Shown in pieces: positions 10,147-34,848 of a stretch of DNA of 51,395 nt; position 1 is the stretch's first letter, and each line of letters opens with the position of its first letter. The notes beneath the pieces are model-generated. The model searched no databases. It was not told the origin of the DNA and saw nothing but the letters and a program-made list of their open reading frames with translations. This DNA comes from Minisyncoccota bacterium (GTDB lineage Bacteria; Patescibacteriota; Minisyncoccia; Phycocordibacterales; UBA12079): positions 1-51,395 of the forward strand of contig JAGMBS010000005.1 of the NCBI GenBank assembly GCA_023129575.1, in the 5' to 3' direction. Position numbers and translations under genes: made by a program.

Positions 10147-11100
10147 CTATCTTTTTCTATAACTAACGGTTAAGCGGTTAAAAATTTCCTGCAGAGTTGT
10201 CTTGTTCGTGGTGATGGCGATTGTGTTTTTATCGGCAAAAGCGTAAATGAACAAAATTTTGCCTCCCCCGTCCAAGATCGCGCGGGCGTCTTTGTTTTTA
10301 ATGACGATGTCTTTAAATTGATATTTTCCTTCGCGTAATCTGCTAACGGACAGAACCGGGTTATCTTCAATAAAAACAGTCCGCAAATCTTCAACAATAT
10401 TCTCTTCCCATTTTAACATTTCCGGGAAAGTATTCTCAAAAGAGCGGGTTTTTAATATCAAAAAGGGTTTATTGCCGGCCGAGGAATGAAAACCGAACAT
10501 AAAATTCGGTTCAATAAATCTTAAAAGCGCGCCGGGAATACGGGTGTCAATAAGCGTCATAAATTGTTCTATGTCCGCAAGTGTTTTCCCCGCTTCCGTT
10601 GTGTTGCCGGTAATTTCTTTTCTTTGCGTGAAATATAAATGGATTAAAGAACCGAGAGGTATGTTTATGTCAGCGGCTTCGTTTTGGATTAATTTTGATA
10701 TTTTAAGTTTGCTCGGTTTTTCTAAAAATAATTCTTTTTGATATTCCGAATAGATAATCGGTTTCAAAACCACATCGCTTATTTTAATAAGAGGACTTGG
10801 TTTGAAGAAATACAACAAAAACACGGAAGAAAGGCCTACGGCGATGAACAAAATACTGGTTATAGATAAAGCGATGTTCTTTTTCGTGGCTGTGGCAACT
10901 TTAAAAAAAGATTTATTCCGCTTTTTTTCTTCAGCCATAACCATTCCCGCCATTGAACTGTCTTTGCTTTTCAAAATATCGGCCAAGTCGCTCCGATATG
11001 TTCTGACGGAGGTCTTGCTTCCATCCTTGGGCTGAGGCGCCTGTTTGTCTGACGCGCCGGCCTCTTTATTTTGAGGGATTTGCTTTGGTTTCTTCTCCAT
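10147..11100 (-). CDS. Single-TM hypothetical protein
   Basis: 317-aa ORF with one TM segment; VRTYRSD motif; overlaps the pnp 3' end. Confidence 0.8.
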   Translation of the reverse strand: MEKKPKQIPQNKEAGASDKQAPQPKDGSKTSVRTYRSDLADILKSKDSSMAGMVMAEEKKRNKSFFKVATATKKNIALSITSILFIAVGLSSVFLLYFFKPSPLIKISDVVLKPIIYSEYQKELFLEKPSKLKISKLIQNEAADINIPLGSLIHLYFTQRKEITGNTTEAGKTLADIEQFMTLIDTRIPGALLRFIEPNFMFGFHSSAGNKPFLILKTRSFENTFPEMLKWEENIVEDLRTVFIEDNPVLSVSRLREGKYQFKDIVIKNKDARAILDGGGKILFIYAFADKNTIAITTNKTTLQEIFNRLTVSYRKR

Positions 11101-14235: not shown

Positions 14236-14331
14236 CGGTCAAATACTAACATAACCGGCGGTTTTTTGCAATATAATAACGGAATTTGGAATGTCGCGCA
14301 ATATCTAACGGTTTTATAGTATAATGTGATT

Positions 14332-15231
14332 ATGAATTTACGGCAATTAAAACGGGAATATCTGGAATATTTGGAAATTGAGCGGGGGCGGAGTTTGAAA
14401 ACGATTGAGAATTATAACCGCTATATGGATTGTTTTTTGGATTTTTTAAAAAAAGACACGCCATTAGCGATTACGGATGAAATTGTCAGAAAATTTCGCC
14501 TGTGGCTAAATCGGCAATCAGTCGGGGCAAAACAGGGGACCCTCAAAAAGACAACCCAAAATTATTATTTAATCGCTTTGAGGGGTTTTTTGAAGTATTT
14601 GGCGAAAAGGGGCGTGGCATCTTTGGCGCCGGAACGGATTGAATTGGCGAAAGTGGGCGAAAGATCTTTGGATTTGATTTCAATTGGGGAATTAAGGCGA
14701 TTATTGAACGCGCCGAATGAAAATGTTTTGAAAGGATTGCGGGATAAGGCGATTTTGGAACTTTTATTTTCCACCGGTTTGCGGGTTTCGGAATTGTGCG
14801 CGCTCAATAACGATATTGATTTGAATAAAGATGAAATGTCGGCGCGAGGGAAAGGGGATAAAGTGAGAGTGGTCTTTTTTTCCGAATTCGCCAAAAAAGC
14901 GGTTAAAAAATATCTAACTGAGCGGAAAGATATGAGCGAAGCGTTATTTGTTTCTTTGCCCAATCAAAGGTCGGGTGAAAATAGCCGTTTAACGGCTCGG
15001 TCGGTGGAAAGAATTGTCCGGTATTACGCTGTCAAAGCGGGCATTACAAACAAGGTTACGCCCCATATAATTCGGCATTCTTTTGCAACTGATTTGCTTC
15101 AAAACGGGGCGGATTTACGTTCGGTGCAAATAATGCTGGGGCATTCCAATATCTCCACCACCCAGATTTATACCCATCTGACGGACAAGCATTTGAAAGA
15201 AATACATAAAAAATTTCATAATAGGAAATAG
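14332..15231 (+). CDS. XerC/XerD-type tyrosine recombinase (ORF from 14326)
   Basis: SAM-like N-domain; STGLRVSEL, GKGDK, HIIRHSFAT, LGHSNISTTQIYTH. Confidence 0.93.
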   Translation: MNLRQLKREYLEYLEIERGRSLKTIENYNRYMDCFLDFLKKDTPLAITDEIVRKFRLWLNRQSVGAKQGTLKKTTQNYYLIALRGFLKYLAKRGVASLAPERIELAKVGERSLDLISIGELRRLLNAPNENVLKGLRDKAILELLFSTGLRVSELCALNNDIDLNKDEMSARGKGDKVRVVFFSEFAKKAVKKYLTERKDMSEALFVSLPNQRSGENSRLTARSVERIVRYYAVKAGITNKVTPHIIRHSFATDLLQNGADLRSVQIMLGHSNISTTQIYTHLTDKHLKEIHKKFHNRK

Positions 15232-15377
15232 TTTTGTTTTTATATTAAAAACAAATAATTTCGAATTTTGAATTTCAAATTTTGATTGAATGATTAATTT
15301 TTAATGATTGAATGTTTAAACATTCAATATTCGGTCATTCAAAATTGAATCGAAATTCAAAATTCATAATTTAACAT

Positions 15378-15496
15378 TAAAAATGTCTTTTATAAAAGAC
15401 ATTTTTAGTTATCCCCAGTATGTCCTTTACAATGTCCTTTATACAAATTATTATAAAGGACAGTTAGTTCTTTGAAAAATAATTTTGTCCTTTATA
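15378..15496. promoter_or_regulatory. Cluster of six TGTCYTTTA motifs plus a DnaA-like box
   Basis: 30-bp perfect palindrome 15378-15407; motif at 15421, 15433, 15452-15462 (inverted) and 15486; TTATCCCCA at 15409-15417. Confidence 0.7.
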
Positions 15497-15617
15497 AATT
15501 TTAAGGCGAACCTCTGTTTGTCTTATTGCAGATATAGGCCCCGATTTTTTTAATCGGGGTTTTTTAATGGTTTAAATTAAAAACCTTACAAAATAGCTTC
15601 TTTTCAAAACTCTGACC

Positions 15618-15675
15618 CAAGCCCTGTTAGAGATAAGAAGTTAAAAACTTCCGCAATCTCTAACAGGGCAAGCCC
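15618..15675. repeat. 51-bp CCYGTTAGAGAT...TCTAACRGG element, copy 1
   Basis: Terminal inverted repeats and a flanking direct repeat caagccc at 15618 and 15669. Confidence 0.8.
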
Positions 15676-15677
15676 CC

Positions 15678-15829
15678 GAGGTCCGACCTCTGAGTTTTTG
15701 CTAAGGTGTAAACTCTATTCACTATTCGGTGAAGTCCGACTTCTGAACCGTCGCTATTGTTTATACTCTACTCACCATTCATAATTTTATCACTTCCGAA
15801 GTCGGACTTCTTTTTCAAGGTCGGACCTC
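15678..15829. repeat. Four REP-like GARGTC(C/G)GACYTC palindromes
   Basis: 15678-15690, 15731-15743, 15798-15810, 15817-15829; same family at 47021 and 47087. Confidence 0.75.
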
Positions 15830-15874
15830 TTATTGTTTGTTTCGAGTTTGTCTTAGCGTTGTGCTTTCGTTTTT

Positions 15875-17374
15875 TTATTTCACCCAATGTCTTGCGCGGA
15901 TGGCTTTAATTTCTTTTTCCTCCTCTCTTTCCTTTTTCTCTTTTCCTTTTTCTCCCAACGCTTTTAATTCGTTTTCAGGCAGTTTTATCAATTCTTGCGC
16001 CCTTTTTTCCAGATATTTAGTTGTGTTTAAGGCGGGATCATCCAAAACATCCTCCAATAAAGCGTTCAAAACAAAACCTATTTTAGGTCCGGGTGTTTCA
16101 CCTGAAACATCCATCAGCCGTTTCCCGTCTATTTTAAGCATTTTAACGGAAACGGGCGCTTTCATCGCTTCCTCTATCATAGCCATATATTTTCTTAATC
16201 TATAAGGTTTTTCTTTAGGCCGTCCCATCCCGATTCGGTCGCAAGTTCGCAATTTCATCAAATCCCAAACATTTTCCGGTCCAACATTGCAAATAATCCG
16301 TCTCACGGCCGAAAGGGTGATTTTATCTATATCTGAGAAAAACAAATGATTTCTGACTAATTTTGTTACGATTTCAATCGTTTGTTTTGGAAACCTTAAG
16401 CGCTCCAAGATTTCACGTGAAACACGCTTGCCCACAACATCATGACCGTAAAAAGTCCATTCCTTCTTTTCTTTATGCCATCTTTTGGTGTGCGGTTTGG
16501 CAATATCGTGTAATAAGGATGCTAATCGTATGTGCAAAGGGAAATTTTTATCAGCGGAATGTTGCAAAGTTCGTAAATTATGTTCCCAAATAGTGTAAAT
16601 ATGGGCTCCTTTCTGTTTTTCTCCCATTCCTTTTTCTAATTCGGGGATAATGTATTTTAAAAGCCCTAATTTTTGGGTTAAAATAAGGCCATCCATTGGC
16701 GCATCCGTCATTAAAATTTTGATAAACTCGTCTCTGATTCGCTCTTGCGAGATATTTTTCAGGTTTTTGGCTTGTTTTACAATCGCTTTTTCCGTCTCGT
16801 TGTCAATTGTGAAACTCAATTCAGTTGCCAAACGGACGGCTCGAAGCAGCCGCAAGGCGTCCTCGCTAAAACGATCTTCCGGGTTTCCAACAGCGCGAAT
16901 AATTTTGTCTTTTAGATCTTTTTGCCCGTTATATAAATCAACCAAAGTTTCACCTGAAACGCTATAAGCCATCGCGTTGATGGTAAAATCTCGTCTTTTC
17001 AAATCGTCTTCTAATTTATCGCTAAAAACAACGGCATCCGGGTGGCGGCTGTCAGAATACTTGCTTTCAAGACGATAAGGTGTTATTTCAATCGTTTTAA
17101 GCGTTTCGTCTAATGTTTCACCTGAAACACCTTTCGTTGTTTCAGGTGAAACAACCCCGACTGTTCCGTACTCATTTTCGTAAAATGTATGCTCAAAAAG
17201 TTCTAAAATATTCTCCGGCTTGGCGTTGGTAGTAATATCCCAATCTTTCGGTTTTCTGTCCGACAATAAATCACGAACGCACCCGCCCACCAAATACGCC
17301 TCAAACCCGGCTTTTTCCAAAGTTTGTGTTACACGCGAAACCTCTTTTGGTATTTTTAATTTAATGTTTTTCAT
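15875..17374 (-). CDS. cca: CCA-adding tRNA nucleotidyltransferase with HD domain
   Basis: YLVGGCVRD, DWDITT, DLKRRDFTINAMA, RFSEDALRLLRAVR, LLHDIAKP, FYGHD. None of the four tRNA genes in the window encodes CCA. Confidence 0.93.
   Translation of the reverse strand: MKNIKLKIPKEVSRVTQTLEKAGFEAYLVGGCVRDLLSDRKPKDWDITTNAKPENILELFEHTFYENEYGTVGVVSPETTKGVSGETLDETLKTIEITPYRLESKYSDSRHPDAVVFSDKLEDDLKRRDFTINAMAYSVSGETLVDLYNGQKDLKDKIIRAVGNPEDRFSEDALRLLRAVRLATELSFTIDNETEKAIVKQAKNLKNISQERIRDEFIKILMTDAPMDGLILTQKLGLLKYIIPELEKGMGEKQKGAHIYTIWEHNLRTLQHSADKNFPLHIRLASLLHDIAKPHTKRWHKEKKEWTFYGHDVVGKRVSREILERLRFPKQTIEIVTKLVRNHLFFSDIDKITLSAVRRIICNVGPENVWDLMKLRTCDRIGMGRPKEKPYRLRKYMAMIEEAMKAPVSVKMLKIDGKRLMDVSGETPGPKIGFVLNALLEDVLDDPALNTTKYLEKRAQELIKLPENELKALGEKGKEKKEREEEKEIKAIRARHWVK
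16094..17342. promoter_or_regulatory. Six parS-like 16-mers embedded in cca
   Basis: 16094 tgtttcacctgaaaca; 16409 gatttcacgtgaaaca; 16946 agtttcacctgaaacg; 17114 tgtttcacctgaaaca; 17138 tgtttcaggtgaaaca; 17327 tgttacacgcgaaacc. Consensus parS is TGTTTCACGTGAAACA. Confidence 0.8.
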
Positions 17375-17541
17375 ACTCCCAAGTATAGCAGATTTTTAAG
17401 ATTTTTTAATTTATTTTCCCCTTTTCTAAATTGGTTGCGTTTTGTTCGGTGTTTGATATACTCGCTGTTAGTGTTTTTTGTTCTTTGTCGATAAATCATT
17501 TTTGCGTCAAAATAATAATCAACAATAAGGAGGTGATAGAA

Positions 17542-17724
17542 TTGGCAAAAAAGAAAAAGCCAAAATTCAGAAAAAAACAACTTAACCTGTTGGCAATTCA
17601 GATAAATGCTGAGAATGTTGTGCGTGAACAAATGCCGTGGTTATTAGAGCCGAAAATACCGCACGATGAGGAAGAAGATCCTTTTAGAGGCCATGCAAAA
17701 GGAAGTAGAAAATGTTCTAAATAA
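17542..17724 (+). CDS. Small basic hypothetical protein (60 aa)
   Basis: AAGGAGGTG SD 6 nt before TTG 17542; MAKKKKPKFRKK... Confidence 0.5.
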   Translation: MAKKKKPKFRKKQLNLLAIQINAENVVREQMPWLLEPKIPHDEEEDPFRGHAKGSRKCSK

Positions 17725-17775
17725 GGTGGACAGTTAAAAGATATTACCGAACTCGACGAAAGGGGGTGGATTGTT

Positions 17776-17952
17776 ATGAAAATCGCTCAAAAAAGAAAAC
17801 ATAGAGACAGCAAGGAGGATCGAGAAACGCAAAAACACATAATATCGCGCGCAAATTATTCATTAGCAATTCTTGGTATGGCATTCGTGAGACACGGTTC
17901 AGGACGCTTCCTATGGCTTGGTCTGCCACCACCAACAAGAAGAGTAAAATGA
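17776..17952 (+). CDS. Small basic hypothetical protein (58 aa)
   Basis: SD-like aagggggtgg before ATG; MKIAQKRKHRD...PPPTRRVK; followed by a terminator. Confidence 0.45.
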   Translation: MKIAQKRKHRDSKEDRETQKHIISRANYSLAILGMAFVRHGSGRFLWLGLPPPTRRVK

Positions 17953-17963
17953 TTTATTGTTCA

Positions 17964-17995
17964 CTCTGCTATCGTTTCGGTAGCAGAGTTTTTTT
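17964..17995 (+). terminator. Rho-independent terminator
   Basis: ctctgctatcg-ttt-cggtagcagag followed by a T-run. Confidence 0.75.
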
Positions 17996-18079
17996 ATTGT
18001 TCCCAATAATTTTTGAATTTTTCCCGATTTTTTGCTATCATATTATTCGTAATTCCCGACGTTGTCGGTCGGGGCAATT

Positions 18080-18151
18080 GCCCTTGTAGTGAAATGGATA
18101 TCACAACGGTCTTCGGAACCGTTATTGCGGGTTCGAATCCTGCCGGGGGCA
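18080..18151 (+). tRNA. tRNA-Arg(UCG)
   Basis: Acceptor GCCCTTG/CGGGGGC; anticodon arm ACGGT-CTTCGGA-ACCGT; GTTCGAATC T-loop. Confidence 0.95.
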
Positions 18152-18153
18152 CA

Positions 18154-18316
18154 GACGAGCAAAGCGAGGATGTGGCCACGGCAGGATTCGAACGGAACTT
18201 TTCCGCCGTAAGGATTAAGGAAAAGCCCGTGGTTTCGGAGGAGCCGCGCGAGTATATCGTGAATTCGTGGAACGATACGAGCGTGGCGGGGGAGAAGGAA
18301 TCCTACCGGGGGCACA
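18154..18316 (+). mobile_element. tRNA-anchored mini-element ending in a duplicated tRNA 3' end
   Basis: 18298-18316 repeats 18135-18153 (18/19); 18179-18193 is a perfect inverted copy of 18131-18145. Confidence 0.6.
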
Positions 18317-18347
18317 AGTAAAATCGGCCACGCAATAGCCAACCATT

Positions 18348-18989
18348 ATGATAAAAACAAAAACACATATTCTTAAAGCGAGTGGAAAACTGCAACCTTT
18401 TATAGGTATTATCCGCCAGTCGGTTGATGAAGTTCTTGATGAAATCAGCGGAAAATTAACGCTTCCTCAAATTGATATTGTGGTGGCGGATAACCCAAAA
18501 GATACGATTTCTGAAATCGGGATCTGCGGAAATGTTTATACTCCGCATTTTGTGTTAATTAATATTGACCCTGAATTTTCGCAGATTAACAATATTCTTT
18601 CCAAAGAAATAAAAAGTACGCTGGCTCATGAATTGCATCACTGCGTCAGAATACAAGGCGTCGGATACGGGAAAACGCTCTTTGAAGCGATGGTTTCCGA
18701 GGGTTTGGCCGATCATTTTGACAGCGAAATAACGGGAGCTAAACCACGTCCTTGGAGCATTGCTCTTGACAATAAGCAGGCAAATAGATTGATGAAACTT
18801 GCTGAAAAAGAATTTTTTGCTTCAGATTATAATTATAATGACTGGTTTTTTGGCTCTGAAAAAAGACAAATACCAAAATGGACGGCGTACACGCTTGGTT
18901 TTAATATAGTCAGGGATTATATTGGGAAAACGGGAGAAACGGCCTCGGCGCTTGTTAATACAAAAGCGGAAAGATTTTATATTACTTAG
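18348..18989 (+). CDS. DUF2268-type predicted Zn-dependent protease
   Basis: LAHELHH, SEGLADHF, WFFG..IPKWTAYTLGF. Confidence 0.85.
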   Translation: MIKTKTHILKASGKLQPFIGIIRQSVDEVLDEISGKLTLPQIDIVVADNPKDTISEIGICGNVYTPHFVLINIDPEFSQINNILSKEIKSTLAHELHHCVRIQGVGYGKTLFEAMVSEGLADHFDSEITGAKPRPWSIALDNKQANRLMKLAEKEFFASDYNYNDWFFGSEKRQIPKWTAYTLGFNIVRDYIGKTGETASALVNTKAERFYIT

Positions 18990-19051
18990 TAGTCGGACTA
19001 CTAAGTAATTGGGAAAAGTTGTGATTTTTGGTAAAATTGGATTTACCAAAC

Positions 19052-19122
19052 GCGGGCATAGTTTAGTGGTAGAATGACTGCCTTCCAAGCAGTAGACGGG
19101 ATTTCGATTATCCCTGCCCGCA
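19052..19122 (+). tRNA. tRNA-Gly(UCC)
   Basis: Acceptor GCGGGCA/TGCCCGC; anticodon arm ACTGC-CTTCCAA-GCAGT. Confidence 0.93.
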
Positions 19123-19210
19123 CAGATTTAGAGAGTAGAAAGTGGAATGTAGAAAGTAGGAGACAAAAAATATAAATTTAATGCAAATTAACAAACAAAA
19201 CATTTAAAAC

Positions 19211-19240
19211 TGTGGATAAATCTGTGCATAACGGGCATAA
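19211..19240 (-). promoter_or_regulatory. Tandem DnaA boxes (candidate oriC)
   Basis: TGTGGATAA 19211 (perfect), TGTGCATAA 19223, CGGGCATAA 19232, in an AT-rich intergenic region. Confidence 0.55.
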
Positions 19241-19374
19241 CTTGACCTTTAGAAAACGCGCTTTTGTCTTTTTGAAATTCATAAATTATTCAAGAAACGG
19301 CTATAAATAAGGTTTTTGTTTAAAAATAAACAAAAAGACATAAATATTTTTGCGTAATTTATTTGCTAAATAAA

Positions 19375-19815
19375 ATGGCAAAATCAGAAAAAAGAAAAAT
19401 TGGCGATATTGGAGAAAATATTGCCTGCCGTTTTCTTGAAAAGAGGGGATTCAAAATAATAGATAGGAATTATTTGAAGAAATGGGGCGAGATTGATATT
19501 GTCGCGCGGAAAAAACAGGGTCTGAAAGATAAAATTTTGAAACGGCCGACGGATAACAAAATTTATTTTGTAGAAGTTAAAACCGTTTCATGCGAAAATA
19601 TTCGAGGCGGAATTACGGCTAAAATGAGAAATTATCAGGTGGATAATAATGTGCATCCTTGGAAATTGCAAAGATTAGCGAGGGTTTTTCAAACATATTT
19701 ATTAGATAAGCGAATTTCAGACGAAACGGAGTGGCGATTTGATATTATAATTGCCTTTTTGGATATAAAGGACAAAATTTCAAGAATAAAATATCTAAAG
19801 GACATAATAATATAA
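19375..19815 (+). CDS. yraN: YraN (UPF0102) family endonuclease-like protein
   Basis: GDIGENIACRFLEKRGFKIIDRNY..KWGEIDIVA..FVEVK; contains degenerate parS-like sites at 19584 and 19713. Confidence 0.9.
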   Translation: MAKSEKRKIGDIGENIACRFLEKRGFKIIDRNYLKKWGEIDIVARKKQGLKDKILKRPTDNKIYFVEVKTVSCENIRGGITAKMRNYQVDNNVHPWKLQRLARVFQTYLLDKRISDETEWRFDIIIAFLDIKDKISRIKYLKDIII

Positions 19816-19821
19816 AAGACA
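19764..19821. promoter_or_regulatory. Second cluster of TATAAARGACA motifs at the yraN 3' end
   Basis: 19764 tataaaggaca, 19795 ctaaaggaca, 19811 tataaaagaca. Confidence 0.6.
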
Positions 19822-20066
19822 AAATATTGGTTTTGTTTTAAATTTAAGTTTTGTTTAAGAATGGATTTTTAAAAAACTGTTTATTTTCTTTTTAATTAAT
19901 TTATAAAGAGTTTGGTTGTTACTTATTTTATGATTTAGGGTAAGACCAAAGTATTTTGTTAGAAAATTTAGCAAAGATATTTGTTTTTGAATTTAAAAAA
20001 ATTACTGGAAAAAGTGTTTATTTCTCACGGTTTATTGATTGGGCAAATTGCAATTAAGGTTATTTT

Positions 20067-20891
20067 TTAAAATCTAGTAATATCTACTGATAACCACAAA
20101 TGATCGGATTCAAAACTTCCGCTTTTTGTATTTGTTATTTTTGTATTTTTAGACACAAAAATGTGATCTAGTATTTTCATTTTAGGAAAACCCAAAATCT
20201 GACAAGTTGGGCAGGTTTTTGTTTTGTTGTTTACTGATTTTAATCCTAATATTTTAAACCTTTTTATAGAATTAATGTTTTCTTCTGTTGCATTAAAATC
20301 TCCTGCAACAATAACCTCGTTTCCTGCTTTTCTTTCTTTTTTAATTATTTCTGCGATTTCTAATATTTGTTGTTTCCAAAGATTTGGATAACAACTGCTT
20401 AGATGTAGCCCTATAATAATTATAGGTGAATTGTTTATTTTTAAACCGGCGGTTCCTCCTCCCGAACCGGCTCTATTTATTTGCGTTAAAGGTTTTATTT
20501 TAGTATCAGTAGCTTTGAGTTTAGAGGCTGCTAAAGTGCAAACAGTTGCATCATTATGATGGGCGGATTTTCCCCAAGCAAAGGAGTTAAAACCTTCTAA
20601 TTTTAGTTTTTTCTCGATTTCTTCTTTGTGAGTTTGAAAAATTAATTCATTCAAAATAATGATATTAGGATGTTGTTTTTTTATTACATTTAAAATAGTT
20701 TTTAAATTACTGTTTTTAGAAATAAATTTTAGTCGTTTGGGGTTGTCCCTAAGTTTTATATATTTTCCTATAATGGGAAGAAAAGGGAATATCCAGCCGT
20801 GAATACCAAAATGCCCGTACAAATTCCACCAAATAGAGTTCATTTTAGGTAATCCAAAAGATGTATTGGCAGTGAGTATTCTAACTCTCAT
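20067..20891 (-). CDS. Endonuclease/exonuclease/phosphatase family protein
   Basis: ILTAN, IIILNE, HLS, VAGDFN, LDHIF, SDHL. Confidence 0.9.
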   Translation of the reverse strand: MRVRILTANTSFGLPKMNSIWWNLYGHFGIHGWIFPFLPIIGKYIKLRDNPKRLKFISKNSNLKTILNVIKKQHPNIIILNELIFQTHKEEIEKKLKLEGFNSFAWGKSAHHNDATVCTLAASKLKATDTKIKPLTQINRAGSGGGTAGLKINNSPIIIIGLHLSSCYPNLWKQQILEIAEIIKKERKAGNEVIVAGDFNATEENINSIKRFKILGLKSVNNKTKTCPTCQILGFPKMKILDHIFVSKNTKITNTKSGSFESDHLWLSVDITRF

Positions 20892-33869: not shown

Positions 33870-34748
33870 TTAATCTGCTTGTTCTTCTGTTTCGGGGCTT
33901 TCCTCTTTGTTCTCCTCGTTTTTTAGAACGGCTTCCCGCATCGCTTTGACGCTTTGAACTAATTGAATATGGATATTTCTGATTTCCTTTTTGAGCAAAA
34001 ATGTTTGTTGCCTAAAATCCGCGAATAATTCGCGCGCGTTGGTTTCGGAAGATTCTAAAGCGTCTTTTGTCTCGCTCCGCATCGTTTCCACCTGTCCTTT
34101 GATTGTTTCCAAACTTTCCCCGGCTGATTCTATGGCCAGAGTGGCGGTTGTCATATCAAGGCCTTTTTCCGCCAGTTTGATTATTCTTGTCTCAATTCGG
34201 CCTTTGATTTGACTTTCTCTTTTGAGTAGAGCGTAAAATCTTTGGGAAACATTTTTAACATAATTTCCCATTCTGGCGACAAATGTATTCAAAACCTTTT
34301 TTTGAACTTGAACGCGCTCTTGTCCCAATCCTTTCTTTTCAGCGGCTTCTTTTTTCCTTAATAAATTGCCCTCTTCTTGCATTTGTGTTTTCTTGTTCTT
34401 TCTCTCTGTCTCTCTTTTCATTTCCATTTCTTTTTGCAGTTTGTCTTTGTAAGTCGCGTTTAATGCCGGCGCGGGCTTTTTATCTTGAATGTCTGTCTTA
34501 AAAAATATTCTTTGGTAGCCGCTTTTTATTTTTTCTTTCAGAGACGTGTTCGTTTTGGTTTGAATTGGAAGCGCGGCCGGCTTAGGCGCTTCTACGCTGC
34601 TTTTATAAATTTTGTTTGTTTGTTCAATTTCTTTTACAGGAACAGGTTTTTTAATTTCTTCCGCGGAAACATAATTCACGGCCACGGCGCAAAAACTCAA
34701 AAACAATATTGCGGACACTAAACAGAATCGGAATTTATTTTTGTTCAT
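33870..34748 (-). CDS. Secreted coiled-coil hypothetical protein
   Basis: Signal-peptide-like N-terminus; helical K/E-rich body. Confidence 0.8.
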   Translation of the reverse strand: MNKNKFRFCLVSAILFLSFCAVAVNYVSAEEIKKPVPVKEIEQTNKIYKSSVEAPKPAALPIQTKTNTSLKEKIKSGYQRIFFKTDIQDKKPAPALNATYKDKLQKEMEMKRETERKNKKTQMQEEGNLLRKKEAAEKKGLGQERVQVQKKVLNTFVARMGNYVKNVSQRFYALLKRESQIKGRIETRIIKLAEKGLDMTTATLAIESAGESLETIKGQVETMRSETKDALESSETNARELFADFRQQTFLLKKEIRNIHIQLVQSVKAMREAVLKNEENKEESPETEEQAD

Positions 34749-34848
34749 AATATTTTTTCTAAAATGCTAATTAAAAATACTTTATACTCTTGTTAGATTA
34801 TATAGAAAAACAAAGAAAAAATAAAACAAGGTTGTGGATAAGGCACGA

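Follow-up and report, generated by a model that had tools for sequence, protein, structure and literature searches.

Two clusters of an 11-nt motif, TGTCYTTTATA (TATAAARGACA on the opposite strand), flank the tRNA nucleotidyltransferase gene cca in the 51,395-nt stretch of DNA analysed here (the window), and they raise the question of what these repeats mark and which protein reads them. An earlier note, made from the letters alone, had proposed either sites for an origin or chromosome-organising protein within a multi-motif origin, or arm-type sites for the adjacent tyrosine recombinase. With up to one mismatch allowed, the motif had 13 matches in the window compared with 2.94 ± 1.59 in 100 shuffles, of which the maximum was 7 and none reached 13. 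Nine of the 13 fell in the two clusters, 15378-15496 (array R) and 19764-19821 (array B): exact copies at 15384(+), 15391(-), 15433(+), 15452(-), 15486(+), 19764(-) and 19811(-), and one-mismatch copies at 15421(+) and 19794(-). The four remaining matches (846, 3720, 16906 and 40572) all carried a mismatch, so the exact motif occurs nowhere in the window beyond the two clusters. The features of the locus are as follows.

14326-15231: Xer-like tyrosine recombinase gene, neighbour of array R
15226-15305, unstranded: AT-rich stretch with 87.5% A+T, next to array R towards the Xer gene; no other 80-bp segment in 14-21.5 kb is as rich in A+T
15378-15407, unstranded: perfect 30-bp palindrome in which two motif copies overlap (15384-15394 on +, 15391-15401 on -)
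15409-15417, + strand: DnaA-like box TTATCCCCA (TGGGGATAA on the - strand); 3 bp separate it from a motif pair
15421-15443, + strand: direct motif pair, 15421-15431 (one mismatch) and 15433-15443 (exact); the - strand reads TAAAGGACATTGTAAAGGACA
15452-15462, - strand: motif copy, inverted pair with 15433-15443 across an 8-nt spacer; kept in the family alignment
15467-15479, - strand: block TTTTCAAAGAACT (as read on that strand) adjoining array R, conserved in the family alignment
15486-15496, + strand: sixth motif copy of array R
15875-17374, - strand: cca (tRNA nucleotidyltransferase), between the two putative origin modules
19211-19240, - strand: three tandem DnaA boxes with 11-12-bp phasing; tandem array kept in family and order relatives
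19243-19251, + strand: site TGACCTTTA (TAAAGGTCA on the - strand) resembling the motif; 2 bp separate it from the tandem DnaA boxes
19265-19273, + strand: weak motif copy TGTCTTTTT, position conserved in family loci
19333-19340, - strand: weak match to the motif core (AAAAGACA on the + strand), a little upstream of yraN
19764-19821, - strand: array B, copies at 19764-19774, 19794-19804 (one mismatch) and 19811-19821; overlaps the yraN 3' end
19834-19913, unstranded: AT-rich stretch, 86% A+T, immediately after array B

Most of what the earlier note had described was borne out. Its clusters of six and three copies were recovered far above shuffle expectation, and outside them only one-mismatch matches were seen, in agreement with its failure to notice the full motif elsewhere. 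The palindrome proved genuine by self-match, the inverted pair at 15433-15462 with its 8-nt spacer was verified, the DnaA-like box does lie beside the array, and array B does run over the final codons of the UPF0102/yraN ORF (19363-19815). The description of the arrays as bracketing a parS/DnaA-box domain is fair, with six parS-like sites (16094, 16409, 16946, 17114, 17138 and 17327) inside cca, between the arrays. The weaker copies placed at 19265 and 19332 stood in part: their positions are conserved in relatives, but they match the core only (TGTCTTTT at 19265 and AAAAGACA at 19333).

The window's own genome (G000) was scanned over an assembly of 653,873 bp. Exact 11-mers numbered 15, seven in the two window clusters, three on another contig (C2:33581-34177) and five as singles, and the 7-nt core occurred 375 times. 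Chained clusters of at least three cores were found in five places only, with sizes of 6 and 3 in the window, 5 and 8 on C2, and 3 on C19. Random core placement predicts 0.73 clusters of at least three and 0.002 of at least five, of which three were observed. At an expectation of 0.73, the triple at 19768-19815 is not significant by itself; it is backed by conservation in relatives, not by count. Substantial arrays were thus confined to three loci in 654 kb, the two window sites and the promoter and body of a gene for a 249-aa winged-helix protein on the other contig. Cores were concentrated in arrays, as opposed to the even scatter that would have spoken against the note's reading.

Conservation of the window arrays extends through the family and the order, and the arrays are physically fused to DnaA boxes. 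Paired cores were present in 19 of 19 family genomes, with 11 in G000 compared with 1 for the reversed control, and the consensus of 363 arrayed sites showed T (0.87) and A (0.90) at two positions beyond the search core. On the Xer side the module '< > > DnaA-box <' could be aligned over 14 family sequences. The box was exact TGTGGATAA in 11 of these; the window, L032 and L041 have TGGGGATAA. At the position of 15378-15407, 7 of the 14 show a palindrome with compensatory arms, and on the - strand of the window the palindrome comes directly after the DnaA-like box. The 20-mer of the direct pair at 15421-15443, or a one-base variant, occurred once in most family genomes.

At the level of the order, the composite AARGACA-N2-5-TGTGGATAA, downstream of cca, was found in 52 of 121 genomes, nearly always as a single copy (reversed control, 0/121), and in 0/201 of a phylum-wide sample. 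The yraN-side composite, TGTCYTTTATMCAC-N11-14-TTATCCACA, occurred once each in 29 of the 121 (control, 0/121). Strict composites were absent from 69/121 order genomes on the Xer side and 92/121 on the yraN side; G000 itself is without the strict Xer-side form, the box there being TGGGGATAA. The two DnaA-box modules lie 2.1-3 kb apart, one on each side of cca, which adjoins a composite of motif pair and DnaA box in 18 of 20 order loci. In order loci and family alignment alike, motif, motif and box were spaced 11-12 bp start to start, with the motifs on the box strand. The motif adjoins the parS-bearing cca in relatives as well, the co-location that the earlier note had looked to.

The yraN-side boxes read TTATCCACA (19211-19219), TTATGCACA (19223-19231) and TTATGCCCG (19232-19240) on the - strand and form the second-best DnaA-box cluster of the entire assembly. 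Beside them, the window and five family loci share a conserved TAAAGGTCAAGTTAT at the 19243-19251 site; among relatives at the level of the order, the canonical motif instead overlaps the outermost (first) of the tandem boxes. At least two cores were present at the yraN 3' end in G001, G009, G003, G004 and G007. The last of these, a closed genome of 752,630 bp, carries arrays at the yraN end, the cca-Xer spacer and the winged-helix gene, and one extra composite at 736 kb, away from the origin, which indicates that the module can occur elsewhere too.

The position of these arrays points to replication. In three of three long-contig relatives the syntenic array region lay within the cumulative GC-skew minimum, with dnaA 33-40 kb away; GC skew places an origin only to about 10-30 kb. 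G007 showed a skew-minimum plateau at 195-222 kb and an ORF-orientation switch at 194 kb, with arrays at 196.8 and 203.5 kb and dnaA at 238 kb. In G019 the composite was at 341,346, the minimum at 339 kb and dnaA at 375 kb, and in G110 the composite at 570,637 fell inside a flat 32-kb trough (552-584 kb), with dnaA at 529-530 kb. Taken alone, the window contig has a left arm of only 14 kb and for that reason gave a weak skew signal. Canonical DnaA boxes are sparse in the window (1 + 3), and the densest cluster in G007, four exact boxes in 300 bp at 632.5 kb, is far from both skew extremes. The motif arrays probably mark the chromosome replication origin of the whole order, whose members are ultra-small Patescibacteria: array conservation, DnaA-box fusion and the skew minimum all favour the note's first alternative, an origin-associated protein at a multi-motif origin. 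The AT-rich stretches at 15226-15305 and 19834-19913 could serve as unwinding elements; the former belongs to a repeated AT-rich palindromic element, and the palindrome surrounding it is copied on six other contigs.

There is now a specific candidate for the protein that the note had left unidentified. The gene (G000:C2:33691-34440) encodes 249 aa, with an N-terminal four-helix bundle, a disordered linker of ~55 residues and a C-terminal winged helix; the AF2 model was confident for the winged helix (residues 184-248) and the bundle (13-127), and fold matches were to ArsR/Fur/Z-alpha-type winged helices. Thirteen cores are present at this gene, five in the promoter region common with the divergent ftsK and eight in its own coding sequence, with no DnaA box inside the array. 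These are the largest arrays in the genome and are unidirectional, with orientation kept in 12 of 12 family loci. The gene is single-copy, homologues were recovered from 55 of 61 relatives, and at 30 of 30 loci it and ftsK are divergent. At most of 30 loci examined order-wide, AARGACA was the top non-A/T 7-mer. Cores within the gene numbered 178 compared with 74.2 under synonymous-codon shuffling and occupied all three frames (89/63/26), an excess indicating selection on the DNA itself.

Across the phylum sample, the protein had full-length matches in G000, two order members and G209 only, and this range agrees with that of the composite, which is equally narrow. In G023 (99% complete), where the composite is present, neither single sequence nor profile found a match; G015 (91% complete), where arrays are present, gave none either, and genes for shorter versions of the protein in the same-class relatives G163 and G238 carried no AARGACA arrays. 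From the arrays carried by its gene, we infer that this protein encoded beside ftsK probably reads TGTCYTTTATA.

The explanation we favour, with somewhat better than even confidence, is that TATAAARGACA is the accessory protein site of a bipartite oriC, bound by an autoregulated winged-helix protein. A sequence-specific DNA-binding protein would recognise the motif, and the arrays would form a conserved, built-in part of the order's origin region. Such an origin would flank cca, with a motif pair 3 bp from a DnaA box and more copies around it on the Xer side (15378-15496), and a tandem trio of DnaA boxes with abutting motif copies on the yraN side (19211-19275); the window's family has a third array in addition, at the yraN 3' end (19764-19821). 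Through the promoter array the protein may repress or tune its own gene and ftsK. At the origin it would sit on the same DNA face as DnaA, given the 11-12-bp phasing, and since in most of the order it would overlap the outermost DnaA box, it would modulate DnaA assembly. It might activate or inhibit initiation, DNA unwinding might start at the modules, and initiation could in this way be coupled to chromosome segregation and division. A literature search found no published report of a TGTCYTTTATA origin motif.

The motif might instead be an origin-associated site of a different factor, with the winged-helix gene and ftsK merely further targets. G023 and G015, with composite or arrays and no match to the protein, are consistent with this, as is the indirect nature of the link between protein and motif. 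We consider it unlikely, though deserving some weight: no other arrays in the genome are as large as those at the winged-helix gene, which keep their orientation in the family and reach into a coding sequence where selection acts on the DNA; order-wide, this gene is enriched in the core; the ranges of protein and composite agree; and a DNA-binding protein that regulates its own gene is the simpler explanation. DnaA itself could also be the reader. In E. coli oriC the I, tau and C sites extend the DnaA oligomer, and the same-strand 11-12-bp spacing of motif, motif and box is that of a DnaA site array. Low-affinity or alternative DnaA sites are nevertheless improbable, as the motif aligned to TGTGNATAA agrees at only about 3/8 specified positions, is invariant across the order where low-affinity sites are typically degenerate, and is present in thirteen copies at one gene with no DnaA box within the array.

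Transcription offers a quite improbable account, in which the -10-like TATAAA would belong to promoters or ncRNA elements and the palindromes to terminators between convergent genes. Convergent 3' ends do enclose both window arrays, a hairpin resembling a terminator comes next at about 15540-15567, and the 30-bp palindrome has A-run and T-run flanks and compensatory arms in 7 of 14 relatives. Promoter-like matches were not enriched, however (22 compared with 15.1 ± 4.2), copies occur in both orientations and in coding sequence in three frames, the 18 cca-composite spacers share no sequence similarity, no Rfam family matched, and half of the family sequences lack the palindrome; the fixed DnaA-box juxtaposition and single copy per genome would be left unexplained. 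We regard dif-like core or arm-type sites as very improbable, even though the Xer-like gene (14326-15231) neighbours the array in the window, in the family loci reaching it and in 12 of 20 order loci, and the inverted pair consists of 11-bp arms around an 8-nt spacer. The note's arm-site idea was rejected: the recombinase consists of SAM-like core-binding and catalytic domains only, with no arm-binding domain, the start-to-start distance of inverted cores varies among order relatives (18-22 bp; 50 bp in one locus), and the largest arrays, 13 cores, are unidirectional and at the unrelated ftsK/winged-helix locus. The arrays also lie at the skew minimum, not the terminus where dif is found. Least credible, and disfavoured to the point of being negligible, is a polar chromosome-organising word of the KOPS/FtsK-guiding type. 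The candidate gene adjoins ftsK and the motif is asymmetric and 8-11 bp long, but in closed G007 core strand bias per replichore was mild (158 vs 110; 123 vs 143) and the core was concentrated in arrays, with no genome-wide enrichment.

The winged-helix protein and bipartite origin that we propose can be set against known systems. The protein's N-terminal domain superposes on the bundles of 23S rRNA intervening-sequence and DGR Avd proteins (PF05635; PDB 2gsc, 2rld and 4dwl), with Z of 15.4, 15.3 and 14.6 over 105-111 residues, helical bundles having a high background Z. Foldseek TM against PF05635-type bundles was 0.82-0.84 (target-normalised), and the Atlas structure row points to PF05635; no PF05635 sequence match was found at E up to 0.1, and proteins of this family, unlike the candidate, have no winged helix. 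The locus resembles dif/Xer in its adjacent recombinase gene and its one inverted pair with 11-bp arms and an 8-nt spacer, and differs in its origin-side location, variable spacing in relatives and many extra copies.

Iteron/Rep plasmid origins and RctB of Vibrio chromosome 2 use regular tandem iterons of about 22 bp and two winged-helix domains. As there, short-repeat arrays adjoin origin DnaA boxes and recur at the promoter of a winged-helix protein gene, where autoregulation would follow. Here, however, spacing is irregular and orientation mixed, the candidate has one winged helix and a helical bundle, and its gene is far from the origin on the DnaA-encoding chromosome. Bipartite origins are known from H. 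pylori (oriC1-dnaA-oriC2) and from B. subtilis, where DnaA-box clusters lie on both sides of dnaA. The present locus likewise has two opposite-orientation DnaA-box modules a few kb apart flanking one gene, but that gene is the parS-bearing cca, dnaA is 33-40 kb off, and the modules have 1-3 canonical boxes each, fused to a second motif.

Origin-binding regulators include CtrA at the Caulobacter Cori, Spo0A with its boxes in B. subtilis oriC, HP1021 at H. pylori oriC, and MtrA and AdpA in actinobacteria, and most are response regulators with a receiver domain. The candidate has no receiver domain, having a four-helix bundle and winged helix instead; its regulon appears to be very small, comprising the origin and its own/ftsK locus, and its arrays reach into its own coding sequence. 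In both cases, a short asymmetric site lies beside or over origin DnaA boxes and is also present at cell-cycle genes and the regulator's own gene. By this likeness of arrangement, regulators of this type would be the closest functional analogy.

The motif TGTCYTTTATA (TATAAARGACA on the other strand) was repeated in the window as the earlier note had claimed. Exact copies were located at 15384(+), 15391(-), 15433(+), 15452(-), 15486(+), 19764(-) and 19811(-), and copies with one mismatch at 15421 and 19794. These copies form array R (six copies, 15378-15496, on the Xer side) and array B (three copies, 19764-19821, at the yraN 3' end). At up to one mismatch the window held 13 copies compared to 2.94 ± 1.59 in shuffled sequences, and none of 100 shuffles reached 13. 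The 30-bp palindrome (15378-15407), the inverted pair with an 8-nt spacer in array R and the DnaA-like box TTATCCCCA at 15409 were all confirmed. That the full motif is found nowhere else in the window held for exact copies: none was present outside the two arrays.

Gene order around the motif arrays in the window
Left end of the described gene order, - strand: PNPase, NYN and S15
14326-15231, + strand: Xer-like tyrosine recombinase
Between the recombinase gene and cca: array R
15875-17374, - strand: cca
After cca, in this order: small ORFs, tRNA-Arg, DUF2268 gene, tRNA-Gly
Between tRNA-Gly and yraN: DnaA boxes
19363-19815, + strand: yraN/UPF0102, its last codons overlapped by array B
After yraN, - strand: EEP-family nuclease gene

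Both arrays sit between convergent 3' ends in the window and are therefore not promoters of protein-coding genes, and AT-rich stretches (86-87.5% A+T) adjoin both. Six parS-like 16-mers with one to three mismatches cluster within the cca coding sequence (16094-17342), and many relatives also carry parS cores in or beside cca. The motif had been set apart from parS, correctly: it is unrelated to the 16-bp parS palindrome TGTTNCACGTGAAACA, and the parS-like sites stand apart from it, inside cca. A ParB gene of this genome is on contig C45 and dnaA on a separate contig, C7.

Other repeats were observed nearby. A long AT-rich imperfect palindrome 3' of the recombinase gene (15254-15375) is a dispersed repeat: six other contigs match it over 51-119 bp with 87-94% identity, and shorter pieces also occur. 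Nested GC-rich inverted repeats, GAGGTCCGACCTC / GAAGTCCGACTTC, occupy the spacer between array R and cca (15678-15832), recur on contig C2 at about 34530-34620 and are REP-like in appearance. The tRNA-Arg 3' end, CCTGCCGGGGGCACA, is repeated as CCTACCGGGGGCACA approximately 170 bp downstream (18130-18320), a duplication that may be an att-like remnant of an integration event.

The window is contig C44 of an assembly of 653,873 bp in 48 contigs (97.6% complete). Of the 15 exact 11-mers counted in the assembly, 7 belonged to the window arrays, 3 were at C2:33581-34177 and the other 5 stood singly. The 7-nt core TGTCYTT occurred 375 times, and chained core clusters were seen at five places only, namely in the window (6 and 3 cores), at C2:33585-33680 (5), at C2:34051-34312 (8) and on contig C19 (3). 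Because random placement predicts just 0.002 clusters of at least five cores, the big arrays are highly non-random; 0.73 clusters of at least three cores are expected, and the two triple clusters (array B and C19) depend on support beyond their count. The C19 triple (10873-10944) was judged compatible with chance and rejected as a real array. The distribution of the motif is a three-locus one. The consensus of 363 arrayed sites in 66 sequences was TATAAARGACA, agreeing with the 11-mer read from the window; two positions outside the search core were informative, a T (0.87) and an A (0.90).

All 19 genomes of the window's family carried paired cores, and in most of them the pair AAAGGACATTGTAAAGGACA, or a one-base variant, was present as one copy per genome. 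At the family loci that were fetched the pair lay between Xer and cca and adjoined a DnaA box; a second DnaA box and weak cores lay upstream of yraN, and cores overlapped the yraN 3' end. An alignment of 14 family sequences gave the module TGTCCTTTATA-N8-9-TATAAAGGACATTGTAAAGGACA-N3-4-TG(T/G)GGATAACT-N5-8-TGTCCTTTA, in which the DnaA box was an exact TGTGGATAA in 11 of the 14 and TGGGGATAA in the window and two others.

The composite of motif and DnaA box was also seen across the order. AARGACA-N2-5-TGTGGATAA was found in 52 of 121 order genomes sampled from more than 100 families, nearly always as a single copy, compared to 0/121 for the reversed control pattern. The same pattern was absent from all 201 genomes of a phylum-wide sample, which included 198 from outside the order. 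The earlier note had proposed looking for co-location with cca in relatives, and the composite adjoined cca in 18 of 20 fetched order loci. In 16 of the 20 it had the orientation of cca and lay downstream of that gene by approximately 230-810 bp, and Xer followed in 12. A second composite of motif pair and TGGGGATAA was observed away from the origin in the closed relative G007 (C1:736,327-736,375), in an intergenic position beside a prfB-like ORF.

On the other side of cca, the motif at order loci overlapped the first box of a tandem DnaA-box triplet (TGTCYTT-TATACACA-..-TTATCCACA), giving the order-type site TGTCYTTTATACACA. The strict pattern for this second module was present in 29 of 121 order genomes, once in each (control, 0/121). 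Motif and DnaA box are fused at 11-12-bp phasing or by overlap, and the two modules lie 2.1-3 kb apart, mutually inverted. In the window's family, extra genes are inserted between cca and yraN, and three tandem boxes stand at the corresponding position (19211-19240 in the window), with the variant TAAAGGTCA and a weak core ahead of them. Besides these three, the window has the one box-like site at 15409; the 19211-19240 cluster was the second-best in the assembly, yet weak in absolute terms. Canonical DnaA boxes were few, one to three per origin half, and no DnaA-trio repeat was recognisable by eye in the family alignments of the two modules. The densest DnaA-box cluster of G007, four exact boxes in 300 bp (C1:632,500-632,830), was off both GC-skew extremes and may represent a titration-type locus or the origin of a mobile element.

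The position of the module relative to the GC-skew switch, another point the earlier note had singled out, was examined in three long-contig relatives from three families. In G007 (closed, 752,630 bp) the minimum of the cumulative GC skew was a plateau spanning 195-222 kb (lowest point, 208 kb) and its maximum was at 561 kb, with a switch in long-ORF orientation at 194 kb. The landmarks of this genome are yraN (196.8 kb), cca (201.3-202.8 kb), Xer (206 kb) and dnaA (238.2 kb), with the arrays at 196.8 and 203.4-203.5 kb. The G019 composite (341,346) was close to a local skew minimum at 339 kb, with dnaA at 375 kb, and that of G110 (570,637) fell within a 552-584-kb skew trough, with dnaA at 529-530 kb. 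The module was therefore in the cumulative skew minimum, with dnaA 33-40 kb off, in 3/3 genomes, at a skew resolution of tens of kb (approximately 10-30 kb). The arrays are proximal to the probable origin. In the window itself skew climbed steadily rightward from about 18 kb, and a strand switch of the genes fell at about 14-21 kb, which is consistent with an origin but weak.

A co-occurring HTH gene had been suggested as something to search for, and a winged-helix gene carrying core arrays was found beside ftsK. It encodes a 249-aa protein (C2:33691-34440) and is divergent from ftsK (C2:31154-33355). Five cores lie upstream of the gene, in the region common to ftsK, and eight in its 3' half, all in one orientation. 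A homologue was present in 55 of 61 relatives, mostly as a single copy; a profile search of five genomes without one returned just a weak C-terminal match, in G043. The gene was divergent from ftsK at 30/30 loci, AARGACA was among the top-repeated non-A/T 7-mers at most of these loci (more than 20 families), and cores were found upstream of and inside the gene, in its orientation, at 12/12 family loci. Sense-strand cores within the gene numbered 178, compared to 74.2 under synonymous-codon shuffling, and used all three frames (89/63/26), although some ORF starts were perhaps called too far upstream and a few promoter sites possibly counted as intragenic. The motif is therefore selected as DNA within this gene. 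The linker, for the rest variable in the protein alignment, keeps only K-D and K-G-H/Q snippets, which are the motif read in two frames.

Proteins of about 330-400 aa from other classes of the phylum, which have only the C-terminal winged helix in common with it, and shorter versions from the same class as the window's genome were without AARGACA arrays: these were present at just one of 14 such comparison loci (G209), and no alternative motif linkable to an origin was found across the 14. Six loci of the other classes (L129-L132, L136, L138), encoding such proteins of about 330-380 aa, showed a different conserved upstream word, e.g. TTGCGGGAAATATGCGAGAATTA, which may be an operator or promoter of a sister family.

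An exact DnaA box, GTTATCCACA, was also observed 25-560 bp past the winged-helix gene stop, in constant orientation, in 26 of 30 loci (L002-L031); in the window's genome this region is at C2 about 34680-34800. The box was mostly just upstream of a TTGCAA-N17-TATAAT-like promoter, followed in close relatives by a conserved hairpin and a 'CTTTGAAAATT' leader, which we take to be boxA-like. In G007 the product of the next gene is 1180 aa long and its N-terminus resembles a signal peptide.

Relatives of the 249-aa protein are recorded publicly, from Patescibacteria, Paceibacteria and Parcubacteria, as 'hypothetical protein' or 'DeoR family transcriptional regulator'. A Pfam scan (E up to 0.1) returned sub-threshold HTH families only, at residues ~188-240 (best HTH_5, 18.1 bits against a cut-off of 22), and no REC receiver domain. 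The AF2 model (36-sequence alignment, mean pLDDT 75) predicted a four-helix bundle (13-127) and a winged helix (184-248, pLDDT ~90) joined by a disordered segment (127-181). The modelled C-terminal domain superposed on Z-alpha, ArsR, IclR and Fur winged helices with Z of 10-11.5 and rmsd of 1.1-2 Å over 60-65 residues, suggesting an ArsR/DeoR-like fold with HTH and beta-hairpin wing. The best superpositions of the bundle were with 2gsc (Z 15.4), 2rld (15.3) and the DGR protein Avd (14.6), slightly above a high helical-bundle background, and its likeness to PF05635 (23S rRNA IVS protein / Avd) is one of fold alone, without an HMM match. A 4-copy complex prediction for bundle residues 12-130 scored 0.01 (mark, 0.42), which speaks neither for nor against self-association of the bundle.

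Several other readings of the arrays were weighed. The proposal of arm-type sites for the adjacent tyrosine recombinase was wrong: the 301-aa recombinase matched only Phage_int_SAM_1 (11-96) and Phage_integrase (122-289) and has no arm-binding domain. Xer/dif or arm sites generally were rejected on domain content, variable spacing and location. A dif core site consists of two inverted 11-bp arms around a fixed central region of 6-8 bp and lies at the terminus. The window pair does have an 8-nt spacer, but the inverted-core distance varies in order relatives and the locus coincides with the minimum of the skew instead of its maximum; the motif was rightly distinguished from dif. KOPS-like polarity was rejected, with only mild strand bias per replichore in G007. 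A promoter, terminator or ncRNA cannot account for the orientation, the copies in coding sequence or the DnaA-box coupling. Sigma-70 promoters and terminators were not enriched at 15150-20150, and 18 spacers between cca and the composite shared no mutual similarity indicative of a conserved ncRNA. No Rfam family was matched by the window, by the origin loci of 19 relatives, by the origin region of G007 or by 16 winged-helix loci; two miRNA-family hits over the palindromic composite were far below gathering score. A palindrome with compensatory arms is present in 7 of 14 family sequences.

Two rivals concern the identity of the binder. DnaA itself is unlikely to bind the motif, which agrees poorly with the DnaA-box consensus; the motif is not a DnaA box, as had been stated. 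Binding by a different factor would fit genomes G023 and G015, where arrays are present and the protein had no match, and we consider it improbable. The arrays are very probably protein-binding sites integral to the origin region, and the ftsK-linked winged-helix protein is a reasonably likely binder of the motif. The original view of origin-associated protein sites in a multi-motif architecture was largely right, given the three-locus distribution, the DnaA-box fusion and the skew minimum.

Our full reading, which we somewhat favour over its being wrong, is that the arrays are origin accessory sites of this order bound by an autoregulating winged-helix protein. The winged helix would bind TATAAARGACA as a monomeric domain. 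An asymmetric site in either orientation and at irregular spacing is what would suit domains held together by a linker that is long and flexible. The protein would regulate itself and ftsK from the common promoter and may modulate DnaA loading at the origin, with the AT-rich stretches just outside both arrays as candidate unwinding regions. Because the motif overlaps the outermost box in most of the order, competition and hence negative control are suggested; in module R, where motif and box are 3 bp apart, cooperation is just as possible. A bolder version, which we regard as doubtful, makes the bundle/winged-helix protein a lineage-specific co-initiator or licensing factor in this order of ultra-small bacteria, forming an initiation complex with DnaA at a bipartite origin around parS-loaded cca and also setting ftsK and its own expression. 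If true, it would be a minimal cell-cycle master regulator from a new protein family.

To our knowledge, there is next to no characterisation of how Patescibacteria (CPR) organise their replication origins or control their cell cycle, and most members are uncultured. The sequence signature pinpoints a probable origin in fragmented metagenome assemblies, order-wide. With dnaA 33-40 kb away from it, origin calls and growth-rate estimates that rely on dnaA could be misplaced. The bipartite layout around cca, with parS within, is conserved, and the protein, which represents a new family, is a specific candidate for a regulator tying the origin to ftsK. Signature, layout and regulator can be tested with purified protein and synthetic DNA, for which cultivation is not required. 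Full-text literature searches and passages of PMC7111523 gave no description of the motif, origin layout or protein.

We rate origin accessory sites with a regulator as a known kind of system, and the motif, the protein family and the origin location as new. Closest in function are the origin-binding regulators CtrA, Spo0A and HP1021, and bipartite origins as in H. pylori. CtrA, Spo0A, HP1021 and MtrA are response regulators with a REC domain, whereas the protein here is without one. An iteron-Rep origin was rejected: iterons are regularly spaced direct repeats, whereas spacing here is irregular and orientations are mixed. Compared to a two-winged-helix Rep encoded beside its repeats, the protein here is predicted to have one winged helix, and its gene in G007 is approximately 135 kb from the origin arrays. 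Unlike the bipartite origin of H. pylori, the origin here flanks cca, not dnaA.
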